48,099 nucleotides of DNA from Bacilli bacterium. GTDB lineage: Bacteria; Bacillota_I; Bacilli_A; RFN20; CAG-288. The stretch covers positions 1 through 48,099 of the forward strand of contig JALEUS010000065.1 of assembly GCA_022780765.1 (NCBI GenBank), in the 5' to 3' direction. The notes under the pieces are model-generated. The model did no database searches. It was not told the DNA's origin and worked only from the letters and a program-made list of their open reading frames with translations. The translations under genes and the position numbers were made by a program. Shown here piece by piece: positions 1 through 14,216 of the stretch (positions are counted from its first letter, which is position 1; every line of letters starts with the position of its first letter).

Positions 1-57
1 TGGTGCACTAGACAGGACTCGAACCTGCACGCTGTTCCCACGTGATCCTAAGTCTCG
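1..57 (-). pseudogene. Partial tRNA-Leu(UAG)-like 3' segment (anticodon loop through T-arm, acceptor 3' strand and CCA); no matching 5' half
   Basis: The reverse complement ends ...GACTTAGGATCACGTGGGAACAGCGTGCAGGTTCGAGTCCTGTCTAGTGCACCA. Positions 1-31 are identical to 13485-13515, the 3' end of the intact tRNA-Leu. Positions 32-57 are a diverged copy with a 1-nt indel. No GCACTAG acceptor 5' strand lies upstream. Confidence 0.6.
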
Positions 58-372
58 AGTAGAGGCTTTTCTTGGACTCTTTGTAGAGCCTTAGAATTGC
101 CTGAAGTCTCGATACAATCGACATTTTCTCGTAATGGCGCAAGTCTAGAGCAGACTGTCTTAGACCGCGTTCCACTGCAATTTGCGGGCACTTTTTCGGG
201 GATTTTCCCATGTCCGCAGTTTCGGAAGACGGCTTTTCGGGCGTTTCTACCAACGCAAGGTGCCACCGCTTTTGAGGTGTGGGGAGAGAGGCTATAGCCA
301 GTTAGGAACGGCCTCCGCTCCTACTTATATTATAGTGTTTCATTTGGATTATTGCAATCTAATGAAACAATG

Positions 373-1797
373 TCAATGAATGTTCCTGCAATCCACCTCA
401 TACACAACGATTCGGTCGCCGATGTTTTCTATGGGTCGCCCATGTAGTTCCCTTAGGTAAAAACCGTTGACTTTCAGCTGGTATTCTTGTGGCAGATCCA
501 CATCAGCCAAACATAGATTCTTGCCGTTGGTTCTCAAATCACCGATTTGAATGTCTTGTCCCCCATTGAAGAGAAAGACTCTCAGTATCTGGCAAGTAGT
601 TTGCCGAAGTTTCCTGTCATCAAACCGCGAGCCCTTCACCGTCCATTTGACATCGTGGCTGCGATAAAGGGAGACTGCGTTCTCGAGCGAGCCTGGTATG
701 GTGTCCCGCATGTTCTTGTAAGCAACCCAGCTATTGAAGATACGGCTTTCGAATTTCTCTTTCTTGGTGAGCCTAGAATCGATGATTTTGTAAGTGACTT
801 CCACGATTCTGAGACAATAGAAATGCATGATTGCAATGGCGAAATCATCCATCGCCTTCAGGACATCCCAGTATCGATTTCTGTTTTTAAGACATGCGCG
901 TTGAAGAAGGAGCAGAGTCGAGAACATCATGTCGAGCGTGAATGTCTTCCTAACGCCATACTGCTCATAGATGTCGTAAAGGCAGAATCCGTGATACCAT
1001 GCGTTTCTTAGCTCAATCAGCTTCTCTTCGTCATTTACGGAATCGAAGAGGTAAGAAGCCTTATCCGTTACTTCGCGGAAGCTAACGTAATCTGACTTGG
1101 CATAATGAAGATTCAAGGTGTCTTTCTCGAAGCCGAAGAAAACCTTCGAAAGCGTTGTCTGCAGCGTCAGGTTCATATAATTGATGGCGTTTTTCCCGAT
1201 TCCCTCGGGGTAGGAATAAGTCGGCTTGCCCCTTCTGCATTTCTCCTGAAAGGTCTTCTCCACCTTGATTTGAAAATCGTTCAGTTCTTTGCCTGAGCCG
1301 ACGTGAAGCCGAAGGATTTTCGAGGTGAAGAAATTCACGGCGAACGGCCAAACCGAAATCATGTTTGAGAGAAGGGCCACGACATGGAAAGCCCCATAGA
1401 GGGTCAGTTCGTCGCCTTTGGTAATGGGAAAGAACGGCCTGACAACCGAGGAGAGGGAAAGAGCCATCGCATCATTCACGTATATCGGATCGTTGGCATA
1501 TAGATGGGCGTTGTCATTCCGAATCAGAAGGAAAATCTGCATCAAATGGTTGAATTGGCTCAGATTGAGCGAAGAGAGACTTGGGTAATAGTGGAGCACC
1601 AAAGATAACTGATCTTCGTTCAACTCTGTCCGGATATCAATATCAAGAGTCATCCTAAAGAATCTATCTATCTCGGCGCACTTTCCTATGAAGGCCGTCT
1701 TGCAGGCGATAACGGGTTCCGTGATCATCGAATATGACCTTCGGAACGTCTCTTCCGGGAACAGCAAATCATTTCGCATCAATGGTATTATCCTCAC
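373..1797 (-). CDS. Two-HEPN-motif protein (putative RNase effector) with a beta-rich C-terminal domain
   Basis: 474-aa ORF. Two Rx4H motifs: LIRNDNAHL (R93-H98, nt 1504-1521, codons checked by hand) and ELRNAWYHG (R264-H269, nt 991-1008). The track start is a GTG with no RBS. ATG at 1779, preceded by GAGGA, is the likelier start. It is the last gene of the operon, 6 nt after the methyltransferase stop. Confidence 0.7.
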   Translation of the reverse strand: MRIIPLMRNDLLFPEETFRRSYSMITEPVIACKTAFIGKCAEIDRFFRMTLDIDIRTELNEDQLSLVLHYYPSLSSLNLSQFNHLMQIFLLIRNDNAHLYANDPIYVNDAMALSLSSVVRPFFPITKGDELTLYGAFHVVALLSNMISVWPFAVNFFTSKILRLHVGSGKELNDFQIKVEKTFQEKCRRGKPTYSYPEGIGKNAINYMNLTLQTTLSKVFFGFEKDTLNLHYAKSDYVSFREVTDKASYLFDSVNDEEKLIELRNAWYHGFCLYDIYEQYGVRKTFTLDMMFSTLLLLQRACLKNRNRYWDVLKAMDDFAIAIMHFYCLRIVEVTYKIIDSRLTKKEKFESRIFNSWVAYKNMRDTIPGSLENAVSLYRSHDVKWTVKGSRFDDRKLRQTTCQILRVFLFNGGQDIQIGDLRTNGKNLCLADVDLPQEYQLKVNGFYLRELHGRPIENIGDRIVVYEVDCRNIH

Positions 1798-1803
1798 AGC
1801 AAT

Positions 1804-4260
1804 TCATTCGAAGGCATAAGGAACATCTCTCAACTCCAGCCTTTTGGAAGTTACCTTCCGGCAGATATCGCTTTCGGAATTGGAGACGAGAAGAAAGGTT
1901 CTATTTCCGCCGTCATCGGCATTCAGCGCATAGACGGCCTCGCCGACCGTCCCGCTTCCAGCGAAGAAATCAGCGACGATGGAATCCTTTTTCGTCGTCG
2001 CCCTAGCCAACTCTTCCATGAGCTTGACCGGCTTCGGCGTGGAGAAATATGCCCTATCGCCGAATATATCTTTCATCTCATCCTTGGCGGAGGAGGTCGT
2101 GCCGAAGCAATCGAATGTCTCCGGAAAATCAGCCCATCTCTCCTTGAGAGAGGCTTCTTCTATATAAGGCTGCTTTATCTTGCCGAACACCGCTTCATCT
2201 GAATTTCGGCAGATGATGATGTATTCGTAAGTCGTTTGCTTCTTATTGGGGTTGAGCACAACCCTGTTTGCGTCGAAATAGGGATGGATCTTCTTCCAGC
2301 AATGGACGGTCACAAGCTCCCTCCCGAAGATTGAAACGCAGAGCTTTTCCAACTCGTCTTTCTCCCCCTCATCGATGTTGATGATAAGGAATCCCCGCTC
2401 GCTGAGGAGATTCTTGGCCAGAAGAAGCCTTTCTCTCATGAAGGAAGCCCATCCTCCATTGAAACCAGCGTCCTTGTATCCGATATAAGGAATGTCCGAG
2501 TTATAGGGAGGGTCGATCAGGATGGAATCGACTTTGCCCTTATAGGCATCCTGCCATCCTTTTAATGAATAGAGATTCTCCGACTCAATGAGCCAGTTGC
2601 TCCGACGTTTCCTAGTAACTATCTTGGCTGGGGTGTTCTCCGCAATGTTCTTGTCTAGGTAGGTATCTTTATAGACCGAGATCTCTTTCAGCGAGGAGCA
2701 ATGGGCGAAGGCCCACTCCCCAACATAGGTAACCCAATCGGGGATGAAGGCTCTTTTTAAAGAAGCGCAGTTTGTGAAGCAGCTTTTTCCGATGCTAGAG
2801 ACGTTTTTGAGATCGATGGAGGTCATCTTATCGCATCCTGAGAATGCGCCTCTCTCCAAGGCATTCACCGATTCGGGCATCATGAAATCCCATGCCGCTT
2901 TGTTTCTCGGGCAGCAGATGATCTTAGTCTTATCTTTGTTGAATAGGATTCCTTTTTCCACTACAAAATTAGGGCTTTTCGATTCGAACTCGACGTCCCC
3001 GCATTGGACGAAGGGGTTGTAGCCGACGTCCTCCAGGCTTTTTGGGAAGACGATCTTCCTGATCCCCTTGCAGGAGAAGAAGGAATTCCGACAGATCCTT
3101 TTCGTCCCTTCCTTGATTTTCAGCTCATCTGCTTCTGCTGAACATAGGCACCCCACTACCTCGTTCTTGCTGGAATATACGACAGGGCCATCCACCTCGT
3201 AGGCGGGACTGTGGTTATCAAGATGGAGGGAGATACACCCTGAGAAAGGGAAGTTCTTGATGTGGATCAAGGATGAAGGGATATGGATGAGGGTCAGTTT
3301 CTCGCAGCGGTAGAACGCGTGCTTCCCTATCAGCTTTACCCCGTCGGGGATGGCATATTCCCCTTCTTTTCTGGGGTCGCAGTAAATAACGCTGTCCTTT
3401 TTTGAGATGAGCACCCCGTCTTTGTAATTGAAATAAGGCGACTCGCATTTCAAGATGAGATTTGGGCAGCCCGCGAAGGGGTTATCCCCCATGACTCTGA
3501 CGTTTCTCCCGATTGTAAACCGTTTAAGATTGTGGCAGTTGTAGAAAAGGTCGCCCCCGATCTCCTCCAGGCTATCGGGGCAGATCACCTCCTCTATCTC
3601 CTGATTGTCCCAGAAGATGCCGGAGCAGATTTTTCTAACACCGCCGGGCAGAACGGCGACTTTCTCTTTTCCAAAATAGGATACCGCCTCATCGCCCTGA
3701 ATCTCAAAGCCGTTCGCCTTCCTAGGTGCTGGAAGAACTGACAACCGGACTTCCCCTGCCCGGCTTTCGAAGAAGCCTCGGTCATAGGTATCGCCATCGC
3801 CGTTGAGGATAATCTCCTTCCTGTCGATGAGGCCGCTATATAGCCTTGAGGAATAGAGGATTGAGAGATACGTGCCTTTCTTTTTGGGTATAGGAAGGCT
3901 ATCTTTCTCCATCTTCTGGCCCCACTCCACGCAGCGGATATAGGCGTTCTGGCAGTAGACATCGAATTCGTTCTCGACGTCGATGGTGATGGAAGAAGGC
4001 TTATATCCAAGCTCCAGAAGCCTGTCAACGCACTCGAGGACGACGAAGGACTTATGGCTATTCAGAAAAAGGGAATCGCCCCCAACAACGGAGACGCCCG
4101 AAAAATAGGTGGCCTTCCCCTCTAATGCATAGATTCTGCAGATGGTGTCAGCGTAATCTTTCACGAAGACATCGGGCTCCTCTTCGATGAACCCCAAAGC
4201 CCAATAGAGGGCGAGGTATTTCATGTCGCGGGTGATGCGGCTATCGATGATATTCTTCAT
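1804..4260 (-). CDS. Fusion protein: unknown N-terminal domain + BspA-type leucine-rich repeats (LRR_5-like) + C-terminal beta-class N6A/N4C DNA methyltransferase
   Basis: 818 aa. Residues ~205-530 repeat the pattern IPxxVxxIGxxAFxxCxxL (for example AIPDGVKLIGKHAFYRCEKLTLIHIPSSL and VNALERGAFSGCDKMTSIDLKNVSSIGKSCFTNCASLKRAFIP). Motif IV is ILIDPPYNS (DPPY = residues 583-586, nt 2503-2514, checked). STPKPVKL and motif I FFAGSGTVG (765-773) follow. The order IV then I indicates a beta class, Mod-like enzyme. Confidence 0.8.
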   Translation of the reverse strand: MKNIIDSRITRDMKYLALYWALGFIEEEPDVFVKDYADTICRIYALEGKATYFSGVSVVGGDSLFLNSHKSFVVLECVDRLLELGYKPSSITIDVENEFDVYCQNAYIRCVEWGQKMEKDSLPIPKKKGTYLSILYSSRLYSGLIDRKEIILNGDGDTYDRGFFESRAGEVRLSVLPAPRKANGFEIQGDEAVSYFGKEKVAVLPGGVRKICSGIFWDNQEIEEVICPDSLEEIGGDLFYNCHNLKRFTIGRNVRVMGDNPFAGCPNLILKCESPYFNYKDGVLISKKDSVIYCDPRKEGEYAIPDGVKLIGKHAFYRCEKLTLIHIPSSLIHIKNFPFSGCISLHLDNHSPAYEVDGPVVYSSKNEVVGCLCSAEADELKIKEGTKRICRNSFFSCKGIRKIVFPKSLEDVGYNPFVQCGDVEFESKSPNFVVEKGILFNKDKTKIICCPRNKAAWDFMMPESVNALERGAFSGCDKMTSIDLKNVSSIGKSCFTNCASLKRAFIPDWVTYVGEWAFAHCSSLKEISVYKDTYLDKNIAENTPAKIVTRKRRSNWLIESENLYSLKGWQDAYKGKVDSILIDPPYNSDIPYIGYKDAGFNGGWASFMRERLLLAKNLLSERGFLIINIDEGEKDELEKLCVSIFGRELVTVHCWKKIHPYFDANRVVLNPNKKQTTYEYIIICRNSDEAVFGKIKQPYIEEASLKERWADFPETFDCFGTTSSAKDEMKDIFGDRAYFSTPKPVKLMEELARATTKKDSIVADFFAGSGTVGEAVYALNADDGGNRTFLLVSNSESDICRKVTSKRLELRDVPYAFE

Positions 4261-4263
4261 CCT

Positions 4264-4890
4264 TCACTCACTCTCCTTTGGGTAGCGGACGAATTCCGCC
4301 ACTTCGCCCTTCTTTTTCATGATTTCCGCATACCTCTCCAAAATCACTTCGGCGATGGCCTCGGGGCTCAGACCATCGGTCTCAATCCACAGGGTCTCGA
4401 AGCTTTTTTCTTTGCAGAATCTCTCCATTTTTGAGTAAATCAAAGGGGATTTCTGTACTTTCCTGAGGTCATTATCATGGGCGTCTCTCCCCTGAAGCCT
4501 TTTTTGGATGGTTTTCGGCTTTGCGTGGAGGATGATGGTCAACGTCGGCTTGTCGAGCTTCTCGATCAGGAAGTCGTAGACGTCCATGTTGTAGTAGGTG
4601 CCCGACCAGGCGTAGTTGGAGCATAGATGCCGGTCAGTGACGATGTTCTCATCCCTGTGCTTCCCGTACATGTATACGGAGCCCAAGCCATAGAAAAGCG
4701 AGGTGAAATCCCGGTCGGGGCTCGCGTTCACCTTGTCGCGGATCCGGATGTATTCCTCGAAGGAGTCACCTTCATCGAATAGCTCATGGAGCGGCTTCTC
4801 GATGAAGAGATAGCCGAGCTTATCCGCAACAAGCCTCGCCGTGGTCGTCTTCCCGACACCGTCGAATCCCTCAATTGATAAATGGTTCAT
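4264..4890 (-). CDS. Thymidylate-kinase-family (dNMP kinase-like) P-loop kinase
   Basis: 208 aa. N-terminal IEGFDGVGKTT P-loop and a TDRHLCSNYAW (DRxxxSxxAY-like) motif are typical of Tmk/dNK-fold kinases. It overlaps the upstream gene by 20 nt. Confidence 0.7.
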   Translation of the reverse strand: MNHLSIEGFDGVGKTTTARLVADKLGYLFIEKPLHELFDEGDSFEEYIRIRDKVNASPDRDFTSLFYGLGSVYMYGKHRDENIVTDRHLCSNYAWSGTYYNMDVYDFLIEKLDKPTLTIILHAKPKTIQKRLQGRDAHDNDLRKVQKSPLIYSKMERFCKEKSFETLWIETDGLSPEAIAEVILERYAEIMKKKGEVAEFVRYPKESE

Positions 4891-5440
4891 TTCTGTTTTT
4901 CTCCTTGAGCTCGATCATCTGATCCAGAGTCACCGGCCTGAATCCGGTGACGTCAACTCCGCAGTTATAGGCCGATTTGTCGGCATAATACTCTTTGATC
5001 TGTCTATACGCCCTGCCGTTTAGGGTCTCCATCTTGTTGTGGATGTGCCCGTAGACGAGCATCCCGTTCCGGTTGAACTCCATCCAGTCCATGATGGGAT
5101 AATGGCAAAGGCACACCTTCCTCTTATTGTCATCTATGAGCGTGATAAAATTGATGGTTTCGAACAATCCGGAATTTCTGTACTCTTCCAAATGGCCATA
5201 GTCATGGTTCCCGATGATGAGGTTCTTCCTTCCTTTCATGGTCTTCAAAACCGAAACCGAATCGAATGCCTCATCCCCGGTGAGATCCCCCAATAGCCAT
5301 ACCGTGTCTTCTTCTTTGACGATGGCGTTCCAATTTGAGGCGATGGCATCCTTCATTTCGTTGAGGTCTTTGAATGGCCTCGAGCATTTCTTGAAGACCT
5401 TGCTGTCCCCCAAATGCAGGTCAGAGATGTAATAGATCAT
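4871..5440 (-). CDS. Calcineurin-like metallophosphoesterase
   Basis: 189 aa with the ordered motifs DLHLGD, GDL, GNHD and GHIH. The start abuts the nrdD stop (5441). Confidence 0.8.
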   Translation of the reverse strand: MIYYISDLHLGDSKVFKKCSRPFKDLNEMKDAIASNWNAIVKEEDTVWLLGDLTGDEAFDSVSVLKTMKGRKNLIIGNHDYGHLEEYRNSGLFETINFITLIDDNKRKVCLCHYPIMDWMEFNRNGMLVYGHIHNKMETLNGRAYRQIKEYYADKSAYNCGVDVTGFRPVTLDQMIELKEKNRNEPFIN

Positions 5441-7144
5441 CTAGTTCCCCCTCCTGTTCTTCACTTCCGCCTTCTTCCCGTCAGTGAATCCGTCTAGAAT
5501 CTCAAGATACCCAGATACCCTCCGAATCCTCGTGATGTCCTTCGAATGGCAAGTCGGGCACTCATCGAAGACGCCCGTTGTCCCGCAATGGTTGCAGATG
5601 TCCTTCGGGAAGTTGATTCCTAGGTAATGGACGCCAGAGTTCGTGGCTATCTCGACCAGCTCATCCAGTCCTTCATCATTGTCGAGAGGGGCTTCGTTCA
5701 GCTCGATATAGGAGATGGATCCACCGTTGCAGAAGACATGGAACAGTCCTTCAGTCTGGAGCTTTTTATAGGCAGGGAGCCCCGAATCGACGTCCACGTG
5801 GAAGGAATTCGTGTAATAGCCCTTGGAGAAGATGTCGCACTGAGGTTCGAAGAGCTTGGAGTCGATCTTGGTGAAACGGCCGCTGATGAGCTCCCCGCTG
5901 GTGGCCAGAAGCGAGAAATTGAGTTTGTATTCCCTTCTCAGGAAATCGCAGTATTCCCTCATGTACTTCACGAATCCGAGGGCGTACATGTAGGTCTCCT
6001 GGTCGCTCCAGTATTTCCTCCCGGAAAGCACCTCCATGGCCTCGCTCAATCCGATGAAGCCGATGGACAAAGTCCCATGCTTGAAGACGTCGGCGAGGGA
6101 ATCGGCCTTGCTGAAATCCTCACACCACATCTTGTAGTGGACGTTCTCCGGGAAGTCATCCGCTTTGTGGGCGCAGACTTTCTTGTAGCGGTCCAGAAGG
6201 ATATCCTTCGTGACTGAGGCGATGTCGGCCCACCTTTTTCTGAAGGTTTCCATCTTCTCCTCGAGGGAGGATGAGCGGTATTCCTTGTCGATTTCCAGCG
6301 CGATTCTAGAGAGATTTATGGAAATATTGTCGATGTTTCCTCTTCCGATTGCGCCATTTTTGCCATATAGGTCATCCACCACCCTCGTCCGGCAGCCCAT
6401 GATGGAAAGAAGTCTCGGGTCGGTGTTTCTATCCTCCTCGCAGTCGCAGAGGAGATAGGTCGGAATCATCTTCTTGGCGGTGACCTTCAAAGAGAGGACG
6501 AGGAGATCGTAGTTCCTGTCCCCCGGATATCTATTCACCCCTTTGTAGACTTTGAAGACGATGTTCGGTTTGTAGACGAGATCTCCCGCATCGCGGAAAT
6601 TCTCGATCGTCGCTCTTGCGATGTATCTAGCGAGATCCGTGTCGGCTAAGCCAAGATTGAGGGTCACGTAATAGCTGGTGAGCCCCATCCTGGTGTGGTT
6701 GTTGTTGCACCAGAGGATGAATTCTCTGATGGTCCAAGAAAGGATCTCGAGAGACGCCTCATCCTTGGAATCGAATCCCAACTTGGTGAGAATATCCGCT
6801 AAGTCGCAGTCCCAGTTGGCGAACGCCATGCCGCCACTTTGCTCGTTGCCATAGTCCTCCACCATCGCCTCGAAGTATTGGATAATGGAGATTGGAAGTT
6901 GCCTGGATTTCTTCCCCTTGAAATGCTCATAGTCGAAATGGGAGAGGTCGAAGGTGATGCAGTTGTATGTCTGCCCGTAGGCGTCGAGGTCATGGATGTG
7001 GATATAGCCTTCCTCATGGAGCTTTGACCATCCTTTTGGGAGGGATTTGAGGACCTCTCCTTTGAAAAGCCTTTCTCCCAGCGTGTAGTTATCGCCAACG
7101 TAGCTCGTGCGGTTCGCGGCGTTCTCGTTATTTGTCTGTTTCAT
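5441..7144 (-). CDS. nrdD: Anaerobic ribonucleoside-triphosphate reductase (class III RNR, short form)
   Basis: 567 aa. N-terminal EEGYIHIHDLD. C-terminal Zn ribbon CNHCG...CPTC followed by the glycyl-radical motif RIRRVSGYL. Confidence 0.9.
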   Translation of the reverse strand: MKQTNNENAANRTSYVGDNYTLGERLFKGEVLKSLPKGWSKLHEEGYIHIHDLDAYGQTYNCITFDLSHFDYEHFKGKKSRQLPISIIQYFEAMVEDYGNEQSGGMAFANWDCDLADILTKLGFDSKDEASLEILSWTIREFILWCNNNHTRMGLTSYYVTLNLGLADTDLARYIARATIENFRDAGDLVYKPNIVFKVYKGVNRYPGDRNYDLLVLSLKVTAKKMIPTYLLCDCEEDRNTDPRLLSIMGCRTRVVDDLYGKNGAIGRGNIDNISINLSRIALEIDKEYRSSSLEEKMETFRKRWADIASVTKDILLDRYKKVCAHKADDFPENVHYKMWCEDFSKADSLADVFKHGTLSIGFIGLSEAMEVLSGRKYWSDQETYMYALGFVKYMREYCDFLRREYKLNFSLLATSGELISGRFTKIDSKLFEPQCDIFSKGYYTNSFHVDVDSGLPAYKKLQTEGLFHVFCNGGSISYIELNEAPLDNDEGLDELVEIATNSGVHYLGINFPKDICNHCGTTGVFDECPTCHSKDITRIRRVSGYLEILDGFTDGKKAEVKNRRGN

Positions 7145-7150
7145 TTTCTT

Positions 7151-7594
7151 TCACCTCAGTTTCTCGAAGACCTGGTTCGTGGATCCGACGTAAGGCGTCG
7201 TCGTGGTCTTCTTCTCGTTGATGAAGGGGCCGTATTTCAAATAATTGATGTTTTCTAGGATTTCCTGCGGAACTTCTTCTTTCTGATGCCCCGTGTACAA
7301 AGCAATGTCGAAGCCTTTTTCCTTCAGCTTTTTGATGAGAATTATCAGGGCTTCTTTCTGATACAGAGGCTCCCCTCCGGTCAGAGTCACTTTCTTATTG
7401 ATGGATTTCCGCTCGAGTTCCTCGATTAGGGAGTCGATGTCCATCTTTTTGCCGTTCCTGATATCCCAGGTCCAGGGATTCTGGCAGAACGGGCAATGGA
7501 GGTCGCAGCCCTGGAGGAAGACCAAGGTCCTGATGCCCGGCCCATCGACGAGGCTTCGGTTGTACACGACGGTATTGATGAAAACCTTGTTCAT
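7151..7594 (-). CDS. nrdG: Anaerobic RNR activating radical-SAM protein
   Basis: 147 aa. GPGIRTLVFLQGCDLHCPFCQNP carries the CxxxCxxC radical-SAM cluster motif. It lies directly upstream of nrdD. Confidence 0.9.
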   Translation of the reverse strand: MNKVFINTVVYNRSLVDGPGIRTLVFLQGCDLHCPFCQNPWTWDIRNGKKMDIDSLIEELERKSINKKVTLTGGEPLYQKEALIILIKKLKEKGFDIALYTGHQKEEVPQEILENINYLKYGPFINEKKTTTTPYVGSTNQVFEKLR

Positions 7595-8031
7595 GCCATC
7601 ACCTCCTCTATCTCTGATATGTCGTAGTCATCAAGAACGGGAGCGAATCTTTCGCGGTACTTCCACTCCCTGTATTTCGGCAAAAGAGAACTCTTGTTGT
7701 ATTTATTATAAACCATAGGCCCCTGCTCGTCTTTCTTGACCTGATTCTCTATTTCCGGATGCTCCCTCTGCTCTTGGATGTTCTTGCAATAGAGATAGGG
7801 GTTTCCCTCGTTCTCTTCATTGAGTTCTTGATATTCTTCCTCCGATATTTCCTTGCAGGACAGCACGGCGTCTTTGCGGTCATGCTTCACCCTGGGGAAA
7901 TATCGGGCCATCAGCGCGGCCTCTTTGCCGTTTCTTGCTCTCACGGCGAACGGGATTGGGATGTAGTGCTTCCTCCCTACGTGCCCACATTTGCAGATGA
8001 CTTTGTAGAACCTGATTTTCTTGTTTTTCAT
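7591..8031 (-). CDS. Hypothetical protein with an N-terminal CxCGH Zn-ribbon-like motif and an acidic C-terminus
   Basis: 146-aa ORF. AAGGAGGG RBS before the ATG at 8031. ATGA start/stop overlap with nrdG. No family recognised. Confidence 0.6.
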   Translation of the reverse strand: MKNKKIRFYKVICKCGHVGRKHYIPIPFAVRARNGKEAALMARYFPRVKHDRKDAVLSCKEISEEEYQELNEENEGNPYLYCKNIQEQREHPEIENQVKKDEQGPMVYNKYNKSSLLPKYREWKYRERFAPVLDDYDISEIEEVMA

Positions 8032-8120
8032 TCGGTGTCCCTCCTTAGGATACCTTTATTATCGATTTTGCGGGCTTTTGAAAATAGGCCCGCATCGTTC
8101 CTAATAAAAACGGCCTCCTC

Positions 8121-8330
8121 TCATTCGAGAAAGAGGTCGCGGACGTCGCATTCGAAGATATTCGCGATTTGGACTAGAAGGCGATAGTCGGTGACTCCGT
8201 TCTTCAGCCATTTGCGGATGGTCCTTTCCTCATAGCCCATCTTCTCAGCGAAGTCGGATTGAGTGAGGCCCTTCTCCTTGATGCGAGTCCTGATCCGCTC
8301 CCCGTTGTTCGGGACAGCTGACTGCGTCAT
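8121..8330 (-). CDS. XRE-family helix-turn-helix transcriptional regulator
   Basis: 69 aa. IKEKGLTQSDFAEKMGYEERTIRKWLKNG is a typical Cro/C1 HTH. AAGGAGGA RBS lies 7 nt before the ATG. Confidence 0.85.
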   Translation of the reverse strand: MTQSAVPNNGERIRTRIKEKGLTQSDFAEKMGYEERTIRKWLKNGVTDYRLLVQIANIFECDVRDLFLE

Positions 8331-8391
8331 GGCAAGGTCCTCCTTTGCTAAGCTTTCGCAAGGCTCCGAAGGAAGTCATTGACGCATCTAT

Positions 8392-8421
8392 ATTATATCG
8401 CTGGAACGTGACGTTTGCCAA
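8392..8421 (-). promoter_or_regulatory. Sigma-70-like promoter for the XRE-led operon, with embedded and flanking palindromes
   Basis: On the minus strand: TTGGCA (8416-8421), 18-nt spacer, TATAAT (8392-8397). An 11-nt palindrome AACGTGACGTT (8405-8415) sits inside the spacer. 8-bp inverted arms at 8376-8383 and 8425-8432 bracket the promoter. Confidence 0.55.
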
Positions 8422-8448
8422 AAAGTCAATGAAAGATGCAGCCTTCCC

Positions 8449-9363
8449 TTATTTCGTCAGCTTGTCGATGATTTTGTTGGAAATCGTGTTGACGGCATCG
8501 ACGACGGACTTGGCGTCCGAGAGAGCCTCAGCGCCCTCTTCGACGTAATGAGGCGTGTCGCTCACCGCTTTTTTCGCCTTGGCGATGTATTCTTTGAATT
8601 TGTCTTCTCCGCAAATGGTGTCCCCCACCGCCATGGATAAGGCTCTGTTCTCTTTCACCGCCTCCTCCAGGCTCAGCAGCATGTCGAACGCTTTGTTGAG
8701 CTTGGCCTCCAAGGAATTGATCTTGATGTCCTTCAAGGCGTTGATTTCCTGGAACAGGGCCGAATTCTCCTCCTCAAGCTCATGGTATTGGACTTGGCCC
8801 CTTTGAATCACCTCCTGGAAATTCCTGACCTGGTCGGCAGTGAGCTGGTTCTTCTCCAAAAGGGCTTTAACTTCATCTTTCAAGCCTTCCGCCTCTTCTT
8901 TCAGCCGCTTGTTTTCTTTCTCCGTCAGGTCGAAAATCCCGGCAAAAAAGGTTTCGTCGTACTCATTTTCCGCCTTAATCCCCATGTAATCCGCATAGGG
9001 CTTCGAGGTTTTCCAATAGACCTTCATGTAATTCGTCACGATGTCGACAGAAACGTTCTTCTCCCGATGGTGCTTGTGTTTGTTCACCTTCTGCGTGTAA
9101 TCCGAAAGTTTGCCGTAGGTGGCCTCGTCCAGGCGAAGCATCCCCATCATCACCACTTTCATCTCGTCCTTCCGGATGAGCTTCCCGCAGGTCGTCCCCT
9201 CTTCATAAGGCACGTTGAAATCGTCGGCGATCTGCTTCAAGGTCTCCTCCAGCAGATCCAAATAGGAGTCATAGAAAGAATTCGAAGCTCCTTTGATGTT
9301 TCGGATAACGGTCTGGTAACGGTTCGCTATCGGCTCTCCCAAAAGTGATATGTACTCAAGCAT
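8449..9363 (-). CDS. Coiled-coil protein with an N-terminal globular domain of unknown function
   Basis: The ORF extends to 9402, but ATG at 9363 (MLEYISLLGE) overlaps the upstream stop by 8 nt (ATGCTTGA) and is the likely start. Residues ~150-250 are heptad-rich (KRLKEEAEGLKDEVKALLEKNQL...EEENSALFQEINALKD). Confidence 0.65.
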   Translation of the reverse strand: MLEYISLLGEPIANRYQTVIRNIKGASNSFYDSYLDLLEETLKQIADDFNVPYEEGTTCGKLIRKDEMKVVMMGMLRLDEATYGKLSDYTQKVNKHKHHREKNVSVDIVTNYMKVYWKTSKPYADYMGIKAENEYDETFFAGIFDLTEKENKRLKEEAEGLKDEVKALLEKNQLTADQVRNFQEVIQRGQVQYHELEEENSALFQEINALKDIKINSLEAKLNKAFDMLLSLEEAVKENRALSMAVGDTICGEDKFKEYIAKAKKAVSDTPHYVEEGAEALSDAKSVVDAVNTISNKIIDKLTK

Positions 9364-10648
9364 GTTTCTCCCCCATTCTTTGCATGAACGCAATGGTCTC
9401 ATTCATGTATTCATTGGCTTTCGCCCGATCCAGATTAGGCAGGTTTTCGAAATAATAGGCTTCCTTCCTGCAGAAATCGTTTCGCGGGACCGCGTATCCG
9501 TTTTCGCTCAGCAAATCACTCAGCTTACGATAGTCCTTGCGCGGTTTCCCTAGGCAAAGATATGTCCCTAAAGATCTGAGGACGCGGGAGCTTTCCCCAA
9601 AGCCAAGGAGGCTGTCAATTCTGTCCATGTTAAGAACGTTGAAGTAAATGACATCCTCTTTTTCCAAGTCGACGATGTCATAGATGTATTCGTCATTGGG
9701 GTCCTTTTCGCCCCTCATCGCCTTCTCCAAGTCGACGTATCGGCTTCGGTTTTTCTTCACGATGCCTTTGTTTTGGAACCCCGAAGGCCAGATGTCAGGC
9801 TTGCTCATACCTAGCATTCTATCCTCAGCTTCGTCAAAAAGGCGATAAAACGGGTCGACCAGCACGAGGGTCCTGCTCGGCGTCAGCGGAGTGAAATAGA
9901 AGTTGGCGCCGACGTTATCCTCGTTGAGGATCAGCTTCAGGATATTGGCCTTTTCTTCATCGCTTTTGGTTTTCTTCAGCAAAGAAAGGTAATAGCCTGT
10001 CTTAATCAGCTCCTGGCCATAATCCCCATAAAATCTGGACGGATCGTGCTCGCAGACCATCCCGATGTCGGATATGACGAAGTCTTCTCCGCACTTCTTG
10101 GAATCCCAAATGGAGAAATAGCAGCTGTTGAATACCCTGGTCCATTTTTGGGCGACGAAGGTGGCGTTTTCCTTGTCGGCCCATTTGTATTCATCATCGC
10201 TCTCCAAGATGGAAAGCAGCGTCTGCTTGAGGTATTCCTCATCTGACAGTTCTTCTTCAACCGGGTGAATTTTGAACATCCTGTCGAGATAATAATGTTT
10301 GCCGAGTTTATGAAAGACAGACCTCTGATGATTGATGTAATTGACGGCAACTGGAGTTCTGAGCATCTCAAGGGAAAAGAATCTTTTCAGAAGCATGAGC
10401 TCTCTTCTCGTCAAAGTGACGGTGCCCTCAGCGTTGATGATTTTGTTAAAGAGGATGTTGGCCACCCTGCTTTCTGCGTTTTGGTTGAAAAGCTTCTCCA
10501 AACTCTCCTCGTAAAGCTTCGTCGAGCAAAAGATTTTATCGGGCTTTTTTCGCTCTAGAATCCCTTCTTTGAGATCAAAGATGTTGATCCTTTCGCCGAA
10601 TCTATTGACGATGAACCGAGGGACATAGTGGTTGTTCTCATACGCCAT
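9356..10648 (-). CDS. DUF4238-type protein with a C-terminal extension
   Basis: 430 aa. The N-terminus MAYENNHYVPRFIVNRF matches the HYVPxFYLxxF signature I associate with Pfam DUF4238. The start overlaps the recombinase stop by 11 nt. Confidence 0.6.
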   Translation of the reverse strand: MAYENNHYVPRFIVNRFGERINIFDLKEGILERKKPDKIFCSTKLYEESLEKLFNQNAESRVANILFNKIINAEGTVTLTRRELMLLKRFFSLEMLRTPVAVNYINHQRSVFHKLGKHYYLDRMFKIHPVEEELSDEEYLKQTLLSILESDDEYKWADKENATFVAQKWTRVFNSCYFSIWDSKKCGEDFVISDIGMVCEHDPSRFYGDYGQELIKTGYYLSLLKKTKSDEEKANILKLILNEDNVGANFYFTPLTPSRTLVLVDPFYRLFDEAEDRMLGMSKPDIWPSGFQNKGIVKKNRSRYVDLEKAMRGEKDPNDEYIYDIVDLEKEDVIYFNVLNMDRIDSLLGFGESSRVLRSLGTYLCLGKPRKDYRKLSDLLSENGYAVPRNDFCRKEAYYFENLPNLDRAKANEYMNETIAFMQRMGEKHA

Positions 10649-11216
10649 TTTTGTTTTCCCCTCCCATGTCCTGGACTCTTCTGTAGAACGTGTTTCTCTT
10701 CAGCCCAAGCCTCTTCATAGCCTCCGTGGCTGTAATCTCGCGGCTATGCCAAAGCTTCATTACCTCATTCCACTTGTCTTTATCGACTTCGATGGGCTTA
10801 CGTCCTTTATATCCGCCTTGAGCCTTCTTGATCTCAATCCCCTCTCTTTGCCTTTCCCTGATGTAATCTCTCTCCATCTCGAAGATAGCGCCGAAAAGAG
10901 TCAAAACAAGCCTCCCGTTCTGGGTCGAGGTGTCGAAGGCCTCCTTGATGGATTTCAAAGCGACGTTCTTGGCCTTGAGGTCATCCACAATGGTAAGAAG
11001 GTCTCTAGTGTTCCGTGCTAGTCTAGAAATTGACTCCACCACGACTGTATCTCCTTCCCTGACGAACTCGAGCATCGCCTTGAGCTGGGTTCTGTCTCTA
11101 TTCTTGCCGCTGCAGACGTCTATGAAGACTTTCTCTACTCCAAGGGTTTTCATCAATTCCTCTTGCCTGATTGTGTTCTGGGTATCGGAGGATACCCTGA
11201 CATATCCGATATCCAT
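10638..11216 (-). CDS. Small serine recombinase (resolvase/invertase family) with a C-terminal HTH
   Basis: MDIGYVRVSSDTQN carries the catalytic Ser motif. Also present: VVVESISRLARN, LFGAIFEMERDYIRERQ and the C-terminal HTH ATEAMKRLGLKRNTFYRRV. GGAGA RBS lies 6 nt before the ATG at 11216; the track ORF extends to 11252. Confidence 0.9.
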   Translation of the reverse strand: MDIGYVRVSSDTQNTIRQEELMKTLGVEKVFIDVCSGKNRDRTQLKAMLEFVREGDTVVVESISRLARNTRDLLTIVDDLKAKNVALKSIKEAFDTSTQNGRLVLTLFGAIFEMERDYIRERQREGIEIKKAQGGYKGRKPIEVDKDKWNEVMKLWHSREITATEAMKRLGLKRNTFYRRVQDMGGENKNGV

Positions 11217-11271
11217 ATCGCGTCTCCGTTTCAATAGAGTCCTTCTTTTCAAAGAGCTGTTTCATAATATG

Positions 11272-11320
11272 ATTTTACCAATCGTGTGACACGAAATCAA
11301 CGTGTACCACTGGGGTACAC
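11272..11320 (-). promoter_or_regulatory. Recombinase promoter overlapping GTGT/ACAC palindromes (candidate res/operator subsites)
   Basis: On the minus strand: TTGATT (11295-11300), 17-nt spacer, TAAAAT (11272-11277). Palindrome CGTGTGACACG (11283-11293) lies in the spacer. A 7+5+7 inverted repeat GTGTACC-ACTGG-GGTACAC (11302-11320) lies just upstream of the -35. Confidence 0.5.
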
Positions 11321-11591
11321 CATAAAGAGATTCGGACTTTTGTAAAACATTTGGAAAACTCAAGCATATTTTTGAATATACAAATTAACCGAAGCGAATG
11401 CGTAAGTGTATTCTCGATTTTAATATTGCGTTGTTCGAAGTAGAAGAAAAACGAGATTCATTCGGATAAAAGCGCATTTTTATCTCGCCCAAACAAACTT
11501 AAGAATTTGTAAAAAATATCGTCAGCAACGAAAAATGTTGACATTAGCCGGGGTCCTTGCTGGAGGCACCACAGTGGTAAAGGATCTCGTC

Positions 11592-12476
11592 CTAGTTTCC
11601 GTAGTCGATGAATACATACCTATCGTGGCATCTTCCGTCAAACCGCTTGAACGAGATATCGATGTCGGGGTATTCGGCCTTGAAATCATTCAGCAGCCTT
11701 TGCGTCAATGTGTCCCTGTTCCTTAGGTTGTCGCTTATGACCGTTATCTCAGCACCATTCTTCGCGGAGCGGAGCAGCTCCAAGATCTTCAGGAAGAGAT
11801 AGGAATCGACGACGATGATGGAATATTCTGCCGTTTTGTATATCTTCTGGTAAGCCTCGTCGGCTTCCACCCTCTCGCCGTCGAGGATGAGGAAATGCTC
11901 CATTGGAGGATAGTACGTGAAGCTGTCCACCACTTTCCGGAGGTCCTCCTTGGTTGCCATCTTATCCTCTATTGTCGAGAACCTGCCACCGAGCGAGCGG
12001 ATGCCCTCGCTGTTTTAATGTGTCTCGTTCACCAACTGAAGGATCTCCTTCGAGCCGATGAGTTCGTGGTTCTCGGCGATGTAGTTCTTCTTCGACTTGA
12101 TGACGCGAATGAGTGCAACGGATTGCTTAGTCGCGAGATCGCCTTTGAGGACAGTCATCAGCATGTAGATCCCCTGCTCAGTATAGGCAAAAGGCAGATA
12201 TCTAGTCCCACCCCAACTTGTGGTGCCATTTTGTCACCTCAAGGTCGAAAACTCCTCGGCAGTCAAACGAAACATGAAATCCTCAAGGAATTTTTCTTTG
12301 CACCTTTGCACCTGCCTATTCAGGTATTTCGTTTCATAGCCGTAAATCCTGGTGAGGTCAAAGTCGAGCATGACTTTCTGTCCTCTGATGACGTAGATCT
12401 CGCCTCTGATGATGTCCTCGTTGATGACCGCAGGCGCCATCGGCTCATTTGCCTTCTTTTCCGTTCCGTCATCCAT
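11592..12476 (-). pseudogene. ORF6N/KilA-N-like DNA-binding protein gene interrupted by two in-frame stop codons
   Basis: Three track ORFs share one frame. IYVIRGQKVMLDFDLTRIYGYETKYLNRQVQRCKEKFLEDFMFRLTAEEFSTLR is followed by TGA (12234-12236). Then QNGTTSWGGTRYLPFAYTEQG... continues to TAA (12015-12017). The frame then continues into ORF 11592-11960. The motif across the TGA matches the ORF6N consensus. Confidence 0.7.
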
Positions 12477-12479
12477 GCC

Positions 12480-12790
12480 TCAGCCCTCCTTGCTTTTCTT
12501 CACCCTTCGGTAGAAGGTGTTCCGCTTCAGGCCGAGCCTCCTCATGGCCTCCACCGCTGTGATGTCCCCGGATCCCCAGAGTTTCATGATCACGTCCCAT
12601 TTCCCTGGATCCACCTTGATCGGATTCTTCGTGCGGTTGCAGAAGACGTAGAGTGCATCGGCGAAGAGATCCTCGCCCAGCGCCACCAGTTTCGATGACA
12701 GCGAGTTGATTCCCCAGCGGAAGTCCCTTATCCCTGTGTACCAACCTGATCTCCGGCTTCGTCTCTCTTCTATACATTGGCAATCGCTTC
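12480..12790 (-). pseudogene. Chimeric remnant: IS66 Orf2 (TnpB)-like N-terminal fragment joined in frame to a resolvase C-terminal HTH fragment
   Basis: The open frame upstream of the GTG at 12686 reads SGWYTGIRDFRWGINSLSSKLVALGEDLFADALYVFCNRTKNPIKV (IS66 Orf2-like pattern TDMRKxxxGL...DPFSGxLFVFxNRRxDxxKIL). It continues DPGKWDVIMKLWGSGDITAVEAMRRLGLKRNTFYRRV, which parallels the C-terminus of the intact recombinase (DKDKWNEVMKLWHSREITATEAMKRLGLKRNTFYRRV). Confidence 0.5.
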
Positions 12791-13484: not shown

Positions 13485-13567
13485 TGGTGCACTAGACAGG
13501 ACTCGAACCTGCACGGTTTCCCAGCGGATTCTAAGTCCGCCGCGTATACCTATTCCGCCACTAGTGC
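13485..13567 (-). tRNA. tRNA-Leu (anticodon UAG), class II with long variable arm, CCA encoded
   Basis: Hand-folded: GCACTAG/CTAGTGC acceptor (7 bp), D-arm GCG..CGC, anticodon arm GCGGA-CTTAGAA-TCCGC, variable arm TGGGAAACCGTG, T-arm CAGG-TTCGAGT-CCTG, then A-CCA. Confidence 0.85.
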
Positions 13568-13807
13568 GTGTGTGCTACTTTCTGCGGACGGATTCGTCCG
13601 CATGTCTTCTTCTACCGTCTGACCATCTTTTGGCAAGAAGAGGAACGGCTTTTCCTAATTTTACTACCCTGCGGACAACTTTTCATAGGAATTCCGGGAT
13701 TTTCTCCGGTCGGAGGTTTTGTCCGCATCTTCTTTTGTGCGCACCTTACCTCATTCTTCCCGCAGCCATGGCGTTTTCGGTTTACCATATTCTTGGAGTT
13801 TTCAAGT

Positions 13808-13846: not shown

Positions 13847-13869
13847 AAAACATATTAATTATATATGAT

Positions 13870-14208: not shown

Positions 14209-14216
14209 AATACAAG

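Follow-up and report, generated by a model that had tools for sequence, protein, structure and literature searches.

Genetic organization of the island

The window, i.e. the whole 48,099-nucleotide stretch analysed, begins with a ~13.5-kb high-GC island (~32-13484), bounded on one side by a tRNA-Leu(tag) gene (13485..13567) and on the other by a 31-nt repeat of that gene's 3' end. All features given with coordinates are on the reverse strand. The distal att-like direct repeat (1..31), at the window edge, is an exact copy of the tRNA-Leu 3' end (13485-13515), which forms the proximal att repeat and the island boundary. A 25-nt probe gave two exact matches versus none expected, and the alignment comprises 31 identical bases; at the L002 locus, the att-like repeat is longer, with 145 nt at 88% identity. 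The GC content changes at ~14 kb of the window, and GC3 values are 0.59-0.73 for the operon genes, 0.49 for a divergent 267-aa ORF and 0.31-0.41 for the host genes.

The genes coding for a leucine-rich repeat (LRR)-containing DNA methyltransferase (LRR-MTase; 1804..4260) and a tandem-HEPN-like protein (373..1797 for the longest ORF) form the terminal pair of the island, in agreement with the preliminary description of the locus. They are followed by a non-coding spacer (32..372) that extends to the att repeat, with a promoter-like site at 376-348, an RNA fold z-score of -2.7 and no match in Rfam. Upstream of the MTase gene are found genes for a 208-residue thymidylate-kinase-like P-loop kinase (4264..4890), which ends 3 nt before the MTase start, a 189-residue metallophosphoesterase (4871..5440; phrog_547, E=6e-44), the 567-residue anaerobic ribonucleotide reductase NrdD (5441..7144; Pfam NRDD, identified on the 99.8%-identical copy of L002) and its 147-residue activase NrdG (7151..7594). 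They are preceded by a conserved block (7591..10648) coding for a 146-aa protein, an XRE regulator (8121-8330), a 317-aa coiled-coil protein and a DUF4238 protein, with a promoter-like site at 8421-8392, and by the gene of a small serine recombinase of the resolvase/invertase type (10638..11252; Pfam Resolvase, E=6e-41; phrog_125).

No Res-type helicase-nuclease, PD-(D/E)xK or HNH protein was found among the 12 island ORFs of at least 150 residues and the XRE gene, in agreement with the absence of a restriction subunit noted in the preliminary description. The island has no CRISPR array, as no tandem repeats were detected in it. Neither structural genes nor a gene for a large integrase, of the serine or tyrosine type, are present, and the island is therefore a phage remnant or a satellite at most.

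The LRR-MTase gene terminates a phage nucleotide-metabolism operon

We collected LRR-MTase loci from GTDB species-representative genomes (112 confirmed matches, the best 80 of which were retained). At 54 of 57 loci, the MTase gene is the last one of a conserved operon, NrdG-NrdD-(phosphoesterase)-thymidylate-kinase-like-MTase, whose ORFs abut or overlap. Of the 57 loci, 54 encode NrdD, 50 NrdG, 48 the kinase and 32 the phosphoesterase. The same cassette is part of the complete genome of a temperate gut phage, NatCom_17901 (Ca. Heliusvirales), where it adjoins genes for large serine recombinases and structural proteins. This phage encodes homologues of seven island proteins, at 33-61% identity, including NrdD (61%), the 146-aa protein, the XRE regulator and the 317-aa coiled-coil protein. 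Thus, the island is phage-derived, its early/nucleotide-metabolism block being that of a temperate, Heliusvirales-like phage of the gut, and the LRR-MTase gene is the conserved final gene of a nucleotide-metabolism operon widespread in gut phages. Its constant partners are these upstream, phage-borne genes and not, as first proposed, the HEPN gene.

A DNA methyltransferase and a DNA invertase were reported to be among the commonest clusters of Heliusvirales, and the methyltransferase was interpreted as an anti-restriction function (PMC11283538); which methyltransferase cluster is meant is not specified, and NatCom_17901 has two annotated methyltransferases besides the LRR-MTase. The LRR-MTase would be co-produced with enzymes that supply dNTPs and would mark the replicating DNA of the element against host restriction.

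Architecture of the LRR-MTase

Pfam, PADLOC and PDB sequence comparisons bore out the three-part architecture proposed for the 818-aa protein, namely an N-terminal domain (residues 1-195; 3676..4260), a BspA-type LRR_5 solenoid (residues 196-545; 2626..3675) whose PDB relatives include 4gt6, 4fs7 and PcpA, and a beta-class, Mod-like methyltransferase core (residues 546-818; 1807..2625) with DPPY (2503-2514) and FAGSG (1951-1965) motifs. The protein matches Pfam LRR_5 (E=1e-46) and N6_N4_Mtase (E=4e-29) and the PADLOC Type III MTase profile (E=3e-45). Neither a Walker A motif nor a TM-like segment is present, and the sequence has no hydrophobic run resembling a signal peptide, consistent with the absence of a signal peptide noted earlier. 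We infer that the protein is a solitary m6A DNA methyltransferase.

Its family is large and homogeneous: 1,418 matches were obtained, the best 120 of which all have 804-827 residues and both domains, and the catalytic motifs are invariant. Mean pairwise identities are 52% for the N-terminal domain, 65% for the LRR and 62-72% for the catalytic core. In the latter, the central target-recognition region is shortened to 48-83 residues, versus 128-186 in H. pylori Mod and Mbo45V, suggesting that the Mod-like core lost most of its usual target-recognition region. Because of this shortfall, the conserved N-terminal domain and the LRR solenoid probably constitute a targeting or scaffold module of the MTase. 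The preliminary description had suggested that the LRR could be a protein-sensing module. However, the LRR and the core are conserved to the same degree, and in one subgroup the N-terminal domain and LRR form a separate ORF adjoining a bare MTase, which is more in keeping with a built-in role in targeting or scaffolding than with a sensor of foreign proteins.

The N-terminal domain has no Pfam or PDB sequence match. Its sole match is to the N-terminus of the PADLOC REase_MTase_IIG profile (profile positions 10-86, residues 18-93; E=1e-7), which raises the question of a single-chain restriction-modification (R-M) enzyme in the style of Types IIG/IIL. In that case, the N-terminal domain would represent a PD-(D/E)xK nuclease that has degenerated, with the LRR serving as a spacer or reader, so that the 'missing' restriction function would reside in the 818-aa protein itself. 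The conserved E76, D100 and E112 residues have roughly the spacing of a nuclease fold, but the Lys residue of the ExK motif is absent, the sequence being E112-W113. In addition, NatCom_17901 carries this gene plus two other annotated methyltransferases, which suits anti-restriction better. We thus regard a single-chain R-M enzyme as very improbable.

A putative tandem-HEPN protein of an unnamed family

The 6-nt intergenic distance and the 474 residues initially reported hold for the longest ORF. Nevertheless, a GAGGA Shine-Dalgarno sequence is located inside the 5' stretch of this ORF, and a 99%-identical homologue (P0001) begins at a TTG codon, indicating that the protein probably starts at the TTG at 1782, with 469 residues and a gap of 21 nt. 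The AlphaFold2 model of the 474-aa protein (pLDDT 93.3, pTM 0.91) is composed of two helical domains (residues ~14-165 and ~200-377) and a C-terminal beta domain (~380-470), the first 377 residues being all-alpha except for one short beta-hairpin (276-285).

The two RNxxxH motifs described earlier are present, R93-N-D-N-A-H98 (1504..1521) at the end of helix 79-96 and R264-N-A-W-Y-H269 (991..1008) at the end of helix 254-268. In a set of 38 family members, some as low as 15% identical, the Arg and His residues of the first motif are both conserved in 37 sequences, and the second motif has its Arg in all 38, its Asn in 37 and its His in 36. Upstream of the first motif, a [DE]44-x3-[RK]48 signature is conserved within helix 27-50, and the invariant E224 (38/38) belongs to helix 202-228, which precedes the second motif. 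Rx4H motifs at the end of a helix and the start of the next loop and upstream acidic residues are features of HEPN domains (PMC3710099).

The family is rare and unannotated (85 clusters among 1.84 billion). The 474-aa protein has no match in Pfam, PADLOC, NCBIfam, PHROGs or PDB sequences, and the 38 members gave only stray single-member matches against Pfam and PADLOC. Foldseek searches of solved and viral structures with the model yielded nothing significant (best E=0.27); Cas13bt3 (E=0.66, TM 0.20) and Cas13h1 are among the weak matches. Alignment of the two halves of the protein with each other gave only P=0.08.

The lack of a significant match to a known HEPN structure or profile would fit a helical scaffold or regulatory protein using its RNxxxH motifs for binding or structure. 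The near-invariance of two exact copies of the catalytic consensus (R-polar-x3-H) across such divergent sequences, their canonical position at helix ends and the upstream acidic residue argue against this hypothesis, which we consider unlikely. The HEPN identity put forward initially is thus backed by conservation and by the model. We propose that the 474-aa protein is a plausible tandem-HEPN protein of an unnamed family and, as judged from its model and motifs, a probable single-chain RNase that cuts RNA. As in Cas13, the two helices with Rx4H motifs would come together in a single composite site, and the C-terminal beta domain may be regulatory. Neither an antitoxin nor an evident regulator of the protein was found.

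A variable slot behind the LRR-MTase gene

The region behind the LRR-MTase gene is a slot that extends from that gene to serine recombinases or to the end of the element. In 59 loci, the first downstream gene codes for a DEDDh exonuclease (14 loci), a ~570-aa double-HEPN protein (3), an AAA_35 protein (3), a Schlafen-like protein (2) or a recombinase (1); two more belong to small categories, and the other 34 either are singletons or did not cluster. The exonuclease, the commonest occupant, is of a phage DNA-metabolism type (phrog_192). The occupants include a PtuA-like ATPase, a Schlafen/AlbA_2 protein, a serine recombinase and, at one locus, a 5'-nucleotidase; at one further locus, GmrSD follows the LRR-MTase, and then more defence genes. 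The 474-aa HEPN gene is therefore a rare accessory occupant of this variable slot.

The exonuclease, the 5'-nucleotidase and the dedication of the operon to nucleotide metabolism would accord with a phage pipeline for the conversion of host nucleic acids into dNTPs, fed by the slot nuclease, the HEPN protein being offensive rather than defensive. HEPN RNases are metal-independent and generate 2',3'-cyclic phosphates (PMC3710099), and the phosphoesterase, kinase and NrdDG could turn the resulting products into dNTPs. However, an endoribonuclease by itself yields no mononucleotides, and GmrSD, the Schlafen/AlbA_2 protein and the PtuA-like ATPase are classic defence genes. Moreover, elsewhere the 474-aa family resides in defence islands devoid of nucleotide-metabolism genes, in support of the preliminary description. 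The neighbours of its closer relatives include viperin, Type I HsdR, a MkoA-like (Mokosh-like) helicase, a ShosA-like (Shosta-like) protein and Fic. We hold the salvage hypothesis to be quite unlikely.

Relationship between the two genes

The preliminary description suggested, by analogy with EcoprrI-PrrC, that the LRR could be a sensing module and the HEPN protein the effector. In such a guard-effector system, the LRR-MTase would sense a phage protein or a methylation state and keep the HEPN RNase latent until infection. The two genes are co-oriented and 6-21 nt apart, without a terminator-like site in between. Members of a distantly related double-HEPN branch, which have 566-574 residues, both motifs and HMM E-values of 1e-17 to 1e-22, are encoded 3-12 nt behind the LRR-MTase at L004, L040 and L047, and at a further locus, L078, in the same element, 8.5 kb from the LRR-MTase and not directly behind it. 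The HEPN family is otherwise very rare. Nevertheless, the pair does not form a conserved module, as these three adjacent pairs represent only 3 of 59 loci and belong to a single clade, in which the MTases share 70-80% identity; at the other 56 loci, another gene or an opposite-strand gene follows the MTase. From the HEPN side, an LRR-MTase is absent from all seven contexts of closer relatives of the 474-aa protein. Furthermore, the LRR is not hypervariable, and the PrrC analogy fails, as both the ABC ATPase domain (no Walker A motif was found) and hsd genes are missing. A guard-effector pair is consequently improbable in our view.

As the MTase is standard in the phage cassette and the HEPN gene is rare and occupies a variable slot, the two genes are probably neighbours on a phage-derived island rather than a dedicated two-gene defence system. 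Our best reading, which we favour slightly, is that of a phage anti-restriction methylase next to an independent HEPN abortive-infection cargo gene. The HEPN protein would be a self-contained effector of abortive infection or superinfection exclusion, cutting RNA upon infection by a competing phage. The lack of a significant structural or profile match to known HEPN proteins, the missing structural and integrase genes of the island and the absence of an antitoxin or evident regulator speak against this reading. So does the occurrence of a very rare HEPN family directly behind the LRR-MTase in two separate clades and elsewhere in the same element at L078. Such recurrence exceeds what random cargo would predict, and a functional link may therefore exist.

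Comparison with known systems

The best relatives of residues 546-818 are Type III Mod proteins (EcoP15I Mod 4zcf, H. pylori Mod 6k0w and Mbo45V 7dsu; E=1e-29 to 3e-36), with which the LRR-MTase shares the beta-class order, DPPY before FxGxG, and the TPKP motif. It differs from them by the absence of a Res partner and of the C-terminal part of Mod, by a central target-recognition region ~100 residues shorter, by the 545 residues of the unknown domain and LRR in front and by the location of its gene in a phage nucleotide-metabolism operon. Like the solitary (orphan) MTases that phages use against host restriction, an example being the Ca. Heliusvirales methyltransferase clusters (PMC11283538), it is found on temperate gut phages and their derivatives, has no cognate endonuclease and adjoins an integration module. 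It stands apart in being fused to a conserved N-terminal domain and an LRR of the BspA type and in the tight operon linkage of its gene to those of NrdDG and the kinase; the words 'leucine' and 'ribonucleotide reductase' are absent from the main text of that report, which mentions neither the LRR fusion nor the NrdDG linkage.

The 474-aa protein shares with Cas13 a pair of RNxxxH-type Rx4H motifs within one polypeptide, which presumably build a single composite RNase site, but it is shorter than Cas13 (~775-1300 aa) and has no CRISPR array or crRNA-binding lobes. AbiD/AbiF (Abi_2), ApeA, AbiV and AbiU2 are likewise standalone HEPN-motif proteins of mobile elements and defence islands expected to cut RNA upon infection. 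None of the 38 family members matches them in Pfam or PADLOC, and in contrast with these single-gene proteins, the 474-aa protein comprises two HEPN units and a C-terminal beta domain. In the R-M-linked anticodon nucleases PrrC-EcoprrI and RloC, a HEPN-motif gene also adjoins a DNA methyltransferase gene. Here, however, the ABC ATPase domain and hsdM/S/R are absent, and the adjacency is not conserved.

Finally, P2/P4-type elements carry hotspots for prophage accessory ('moron') and defence genes. The slot described here resembles them in being syntenic, with conserved phage flanks and different, often defence-type genes in related elements. It differs from them by the phage lineage and the flanking genes, and it also holds a DNA-metabolism gene, that of the DEDDh exonuclease.

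The LRR-methyltransferase family

The gene at 1804-4260 (minus strand) codes for a protein of 818 residues, hereafter called LRR-MTase, in which Pfam detected LRR_5 repeats in four stretches (E=1e-46) and an N6_N4_Mtase domain (E=4e-29). Its top PADLOC matches are Type III methyltransferase models (E=3e-45), and its core is of the beta-class N6_N4 type, with the DPPY motif (2503-2514, minus strand) preceding the FxGxG motif, here FAGSG (1951-1965, minus strand), as in Type III Mod enzymes. Residues 1 to ~190 gave no match in Pfam, and a profile of this N-terminal domain retrieved nothing from the PDB sequences; the sole lead comes from PADLOC, where the domain matches the beginning of a Type IIG REase-MTase profile (E=1e-7). 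No Walker A motif, TM-like segment or signal-peptide-like N-terminus was found in the protein. The fusion architecture proposed in the preliminary description is thus borne out, as is the absence of a signal peptide from this LRR protein.

A search of 5.8 billion proteins yielded 1418 matches to LRR-MTase. The best 120 of these are all 804-827 residues long, harbour both domains and show 50-68% identity, save for the window's own 100%-identical cluster. The catalytic motifs are invariant in an alignment of 22 sequences, together with many positions of the LRR and of the N-terminal domain. Scanning GTDB with one genome per species gave 112 confirmed matches, from which 80 loci were retained; most belong to bins of Bacilli, Clostridia, Treponema and Bacteroidales from gut and rumen.

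A conserved upstream operon of phage origin

We called and clustered neighbouring ORFs and counted the five genes upstream of LRR-MTase in the 57 loci whose upstream sequence spans 3.5 kb or more. They frequently code for NrdD (54/57), NrdG (50/57), a thymidylate-kinase-like protein (48/57) and a metallophosphoesterase (32/57), and genes for a 146-aa protein, an XRE regulator, a ~300-aa coiled-coil protein and a DUF4238 protein recur farther upstream. In the window, the genes for the 146-aa protein, NrdG, NrdD, the metallophosphoesterase and the thymidylate-kinase-like protein (4264-8031) form an operon with LRR-MTase, as they do in loci L004-L084 and L092-L094 of our comparison set. The kinase ORF mostly abuts or overlaps the LRR-MTase start. 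This arrangement links the translation of a DNA methyltransferase to that of genes for dNTP supply. The DUF4238 protein of the window (430 residues, 9356-10648, minus strand) is coded by a gene adjoining that of a resolvase, and in 18 related loci the cassette is preceded by a homologue.

A tblastn search of GenBank phages identified a full-length LRR-MTase homologue (97% coverage, 43% identity) in phage NatCom_17901 (PV036423.1), a complete Caudoviricetes genome of the Ca. Heliusvirales from human faeces. The gene order in this phage is NrdG, NrdD, thymidylate kinase, LRR ORF and MTase ORF, followed by two large serine recombinase genes on the opposite strand, then by tail and head genes. Seven island proteins (a 317-aa protein, XRE, the 146-aa protein, NrdG, NrdD, the kinase and LRR-MTase) show 33-61% identity to PV036423.1. 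From the 146-aa protein through the MTase, the genes of the window and the phage follow the same order; the phage differs in that it is devoid of the phosphoesterase gene and that its XRE-like match is encoded on the other strand. The shared order and homology with a classified phage identify the operon as a Heliusvirales-like early/nucleotide-metabolism module. A megablast search of GenBank phages with the whole island gave no match.

NatCom_17901 carries two further annotated methyltransferases. A DNA methyltransferase and a DNA invertase are among the commonest protein clusters of Ca. Heliusvirales, and the former has been taken as a counter to host restriction (PMC11283538). In that report, the methyltransferase cluster is not identified as the LRR-MTase family, and neither the LRR fusion nor NrdD is mentioned. 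In our comparisons, the LRR-MTase family is consistently linked with an NrdDG/kinase operon, in a lineage of gut phages that is very widespread. Judging from their sequences, LRR-MTases constitute a large, uniform and uncharacterized family of phage methyltransferases.

Role of the LRR

When aligned with H. pylori Mod and Mbo45V, the LRR-MTase core matches on either side of a central region of 48-83 residues, as against 128-186 in those two enzymes. The full central target-recognition domain of Type III Mod is thus missing, as is the C-terminal part of Mod; the BspA-type LRR and the N-terminal domain stand in place of the former. Mean pairwise identity within the family is 65% for the LRR, 62-72% for the catalytic lobes and 52% for the N-terminal domain. 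In a ~42%-identity subgroup that includes the phage, LRR-MTase is split into a ~530-aa N-terminal-plus-LRR ORF and a bare ~285-aa MTase ORF, which overlap by 12-33 nt (loci L069, L073-L077, L082 and L083, and L094 at 10117-12575). This could represent a true split or a programmed frameshift.

The short target-recognition region, the conservation of the LRR and the split ORFs favour the view that the LRR and N-terminal part act as a targeting or scaffold module built into the methyltransferase. The same three facts speak against a fast-evolving sensor of foreign proteins; the protein-sensing role initially suggested for the LRR fits poorly with repeats that are as conserved as the catalytic core. 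The methylation motif of LRR-MTase, and what an LRR does in a DNA enzyme, can be addressed by experiment.

The island

GC content is 0.45-0.52 up to ~14 kb of the window and 0.29-0.41 beyond. GC3 values are 0.59-0.73 for the operon genes, 0.49 for a divergent 267-aa ORF and 0.31-0.41 for the host genes. A tRNA-Leu(tag) gene (13485-13567, minus strand) marks the proximal boundary, and an exact 31-nt direct repeat of its 3' end (1-31, minus strand) the distal one; the repeat corresponds to the 3' half of the tRNA only, with no second tRNA. The repeat and the GC shift delimit a ~13.5-kb integrated island, and the region at ~32-13484 indeed looks like an integrated element, with the candidate tandem-HEPN gene last. 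We also considered, and rejected, the tRNA-like tail at 1-30 as the 3' end of a tmRNA; it has no Rfam or ARAGORN match and no 5' acceptor strand, and corresponds to the tRNA-Leu repeat.

The island codes for a small serine recombinase (10638-11252), and no terminase, capsid or tail genes were found in the 13.5 kb between the att repeats. It is therefore not a complete prophage; a recombinase gene without structural genes points to a phage remnant or a satellite-like derivative. Two independent metagenome contigs (L002 and L003) contain the same genes at 99.8% identity, and in L002 the repeat reaches 145 nt at 88% identity, past the CCA end of the tRNA. The L002 flank past the att repeat (7863-9089) has a GC content of 0.45-0.54, versus 0.29-0.41 on the host side of the window (14000-48099). 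This difference reflects either insertion of the island in different hosts, tandem islands or a chimeric assembly at the tRNA; a possible chimeric join at that site leaves the gene pair unaffected. Upstream tRNA or tmRNA genes in nine other loci showed no att-type repeats of at least 14 nt.

The last gene of the island is followed by a 340-nt non-coding stretch (32-372, minus strand), whose predicted RNA folding beats that of shuffled sequences (z=-2.7) and which has no Rfam match. A strong promoter-like site, TTGACA-17-AATAAT with a TG element, is present at 376-348.

A probable tandem-HEPN protein

According to the table of longest ORFs, the last gene (373-1797, minus strand) codes for 474 residues and lies 6 nt from LRR-MTase. 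Those figures of the preliminary description hold for the longest ORF; a GAGGA Shine-Dalgarno sequence inside its first codons and the start of P0001, a 99%-identical protein that begins five codons later, indicate that the true protein probably has 469 residues and that the gap is 21 nt. We keep the 474-residue numbering.

The protein has no match in Pfam, PADLOC, NCBIfam, PHROGs or the PDB sequences. HMMER, run exhaustively on 1.84 billion cluster representatives, gave 85 clusters, ~35 of which are full length at ~460 residues, and a word-index search with the family profile added one protein; tblastn against phages and plasmids found no match. In the resulting alignment of 38 sequences, with identities to the query down to 15%, the invariant or near-invariant residues are R93, H98, E224, R264, N265, H269, G270, E333, K337, K348 and R352. 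Motif 1, RNDNAH (1504-1521, minus strand), has R93 in 37/38, N or D at position 94 in 28/38 and H98 in 37/38 sequences. In motif 2, RNAWYH (991-1008, minus strand), R264 is conserved in 38/38, N265 in 37/38 and H269 in 36/38. Both therefore follow the HEPN Rx4-6H pattern, in which the Arg is immediately followed by a polar residue (N/D/H) (PMC3710099).

AlphaFold2 with an alignment of four sequences gave a pLDDT of 49, and the model was redone with the 38 sequences, reaching a pLDDT of 93.3 and a pTM of 0.91. The predicted fold comprises two helical domains and a C-terminal beta domain (~380-470). In HEPN domains, the motif with its polar residue after the Arg ends helix 3, an acidic residue is found upstream, often as Ex3[KR], and an insert separates helices 2 and 3 (Anantharaman et al., PMC3710099). 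Our model, and the model only, displays these very traits: each Rx4H is predicted where a helix ends (79-96 and 254-268) and the following loop begins, the long helix before it carries a conserved acidic residue ([DE]44-x3-[RK]48 in 27-50; the invariant E224 in 202-228), and a short inserted helix separates the two (61-70 and 240-246).

Homology searches were mostly silent. Foldseek of the model against PDB and BFVD gave nothing significant (best E-value 0.27), and profiles of the whole family and of domain 2 were negative against the PDB sequences. Among the 38 members, a stray HEPN_Swt1 match was found by Pfam in one (E=0.015) and a stray CARF-HEPN match by PADLOC in one (E=0.003). An hhalign comparison of the two domains placed the motifs in register, at a non-significant P=0.08. 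The two HEPN motifs noticed at the outset are thus present, conserved and located at helix ends in the model, with no significant profile or structure match to accompany them, and we regard the protein as a probable tandem-HEPN protein. The family is rare and compact and is found in defence islands; its fold, predicted with confidence, has no match among solved or viral structures, and its members are candidate small single-chain RNase effectors.

The relatives occur as one copy per locus, in diverse contexts. The neighbourhood includes Fic in L001, viperin and an RNase III-like gene in L088, Type I HsdR and an RNase III-dsRBD gene in L090, an MkoA-like helicase gene 10 nt downstream in L086, a ShosA/DprA-like gene in L089, and genes of no known function with an RNase_T gene for the homologue P0003. 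In L088 (5-4064), the relative comes right after viperin with a 4-nt overlap, and viperin after the RNase III-like gene; in L090 (6888-9314), it directly follows the RNase III-dsRBD gene with a 3-nt gap. These two gene runs may represent multi-gene RNA-targeting defence clusters. LRR-MTase is absent from all these contexts (L001, L086, L088-L090 and P0003). The defence-gene contexts support, by association, a defence role for the family, and the absence of LRR-MTase argues against an obligate methyltransferase partner.

A variable gene slot downstream of LRR-MTase

We scored the first downstream gene in the 59 LRR-MTase loci that have 1.5 kb or more of sequence on that side. It codes for a DEDDh exonuclease-like protein in 14 loci, a 566-574-aa double-RNxxxH protein in three, an AAA_35 protein on the opposite strand in three, a Schlafen/AlbA_2 protein in two and a large serine recombinase in one. 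Two further loci have a DUF4238 gene and a second LRR-MTase-like ORF, respectively, and the remaining 34 have singletons or unclustered genes, including those for a PtuA/AriA-like ATPase, a 5'-nucleotidase and an HTH protein. Behind the 55%-identical homologue P0006 (L093, 12566-20205), we found genes for GmrSD, a Schlafen/AlbA_2-like protein, a DUF4143 ATPase and RelB-Fic. In L007, L017 and L047, the variable gene sits between LRR-MTase and a nearby large serine recombinase gene. Varied genes, known defence genes among them, next to a conserved flank are typical of an accessory slot carried by a mobile element. This slot offers a place to look for new accessory and defence genes of gut phages.

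The HMM profile of the 474-aa family retrieved distant homologues with both domains and both motifs in four LRR-MTase loci (E=1e-17 to 1e-24). They form a longer double-RNxxxH branch of 558-574 residues (L004, 12434-14158; L040, 12443-14143; L047, 2192-3916; L078, 1438-3114), with the motifs RN[IM]NAH and RNF[SAC][AF]H; the L004 member has no Pfam or PADLOC match. In L004, L040 and L047, the gene is right behind LRR-MTase, with gaps of 3-12 nt, and in L078 it lies 8.5 kb upstream. The former three loci are of one clade, with methyltransferases 70-80% identical to one another and ~50% to that of the window, and double-RNxxxH proteins 39-52% identical to one another. One very rare superfamily thus occupies this position in two distinct clades, and a third has it at another site of the element. 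A shared cargo history in one element lineage most simply accounts for this repeated placement.

Functional pair or independent neighbours

Homologues of the two genes co-occur in three adjacent arrangements and in L078, and most loci have other genes in the slot. A conserved two-gene restriction-modification-like or abortive-infection module, as claimed in the preliminary description, does not agree with a double-HEPN gene behind so few LRR-MTases or with the contexts of the 474-aa relatives. The claim of a new two-gene defence system probably does not hold. On balance, we lean towards a phage anti-restriction methyltransferase of unusual architecture and an independent tandem-HEPN accessory gene, the latter probably coding for an abortive-infection RNase.

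The recurrent placement behind LRR-MTase would also suit two readings that link the genes. In the original guard-effector model, the LRR would sense proteins and the HEPN protein would be the effector; given the conservation of the LRR and the variety of genes in the slot, we consider it unlikely. Also unlikely is a reading in which LRR-MTase and the tandem-HEPN RNase are a real functional pair in phage-derived elements. The LRR/N-terminal module, or the methylation state written by the enzyme, would then keep a single-chain HEPN RNase resembling Cas13 switched off as long as no competing phage interferes. If so, the two divergent HEPN branches behind LRR-MTase would reflect selection for linkage and not shared cargo history. 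The improbability of a two-gene system saves effort and directs attention to the LRR-MTase family, the tandem-HEPN family and the variable slot.

Comparison with known systems

A Type III system would have a Res gene next to the methyltransferase gene. In agreement with the initial observation, no ORF for an SF2 helicase with a nuclease is present in the island, and helicases are absent among the largest neighbour clusters that were identified across 79 loci, where part of the clusters was annotated. The precedent of PrrC guarded by EcoprrI, which had been invoked for the pair, does not apply: the 474-aa protein has no N-terminal ABC ATPase of the PrrC type, with neither a Walker A motif nor an ATPase family match, and the island has no Type I hsd locus, its sole methyltransferase being Mod-like. 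Unlike Cas13, which is associated with a CRISPR array and has a crRNA-binding architecture, the protein has 474 residues and is accompanied by no CRISPR array or tandem repeats in 1-14500; the Foldseek match of its model to Cas13bt3 is non-significant (E=0.66, TM 0.20). It also differs from HEPN-MNT toxin-antitoxin systems, as its neighbours are LRR-MTase and non-coding DNA rather than a nucleotidyltransferase gene, and no MNT gene was seen beside its relatives. LRR-MTase and the 474-aa protein are uncharacterized variants, each within a known kind.
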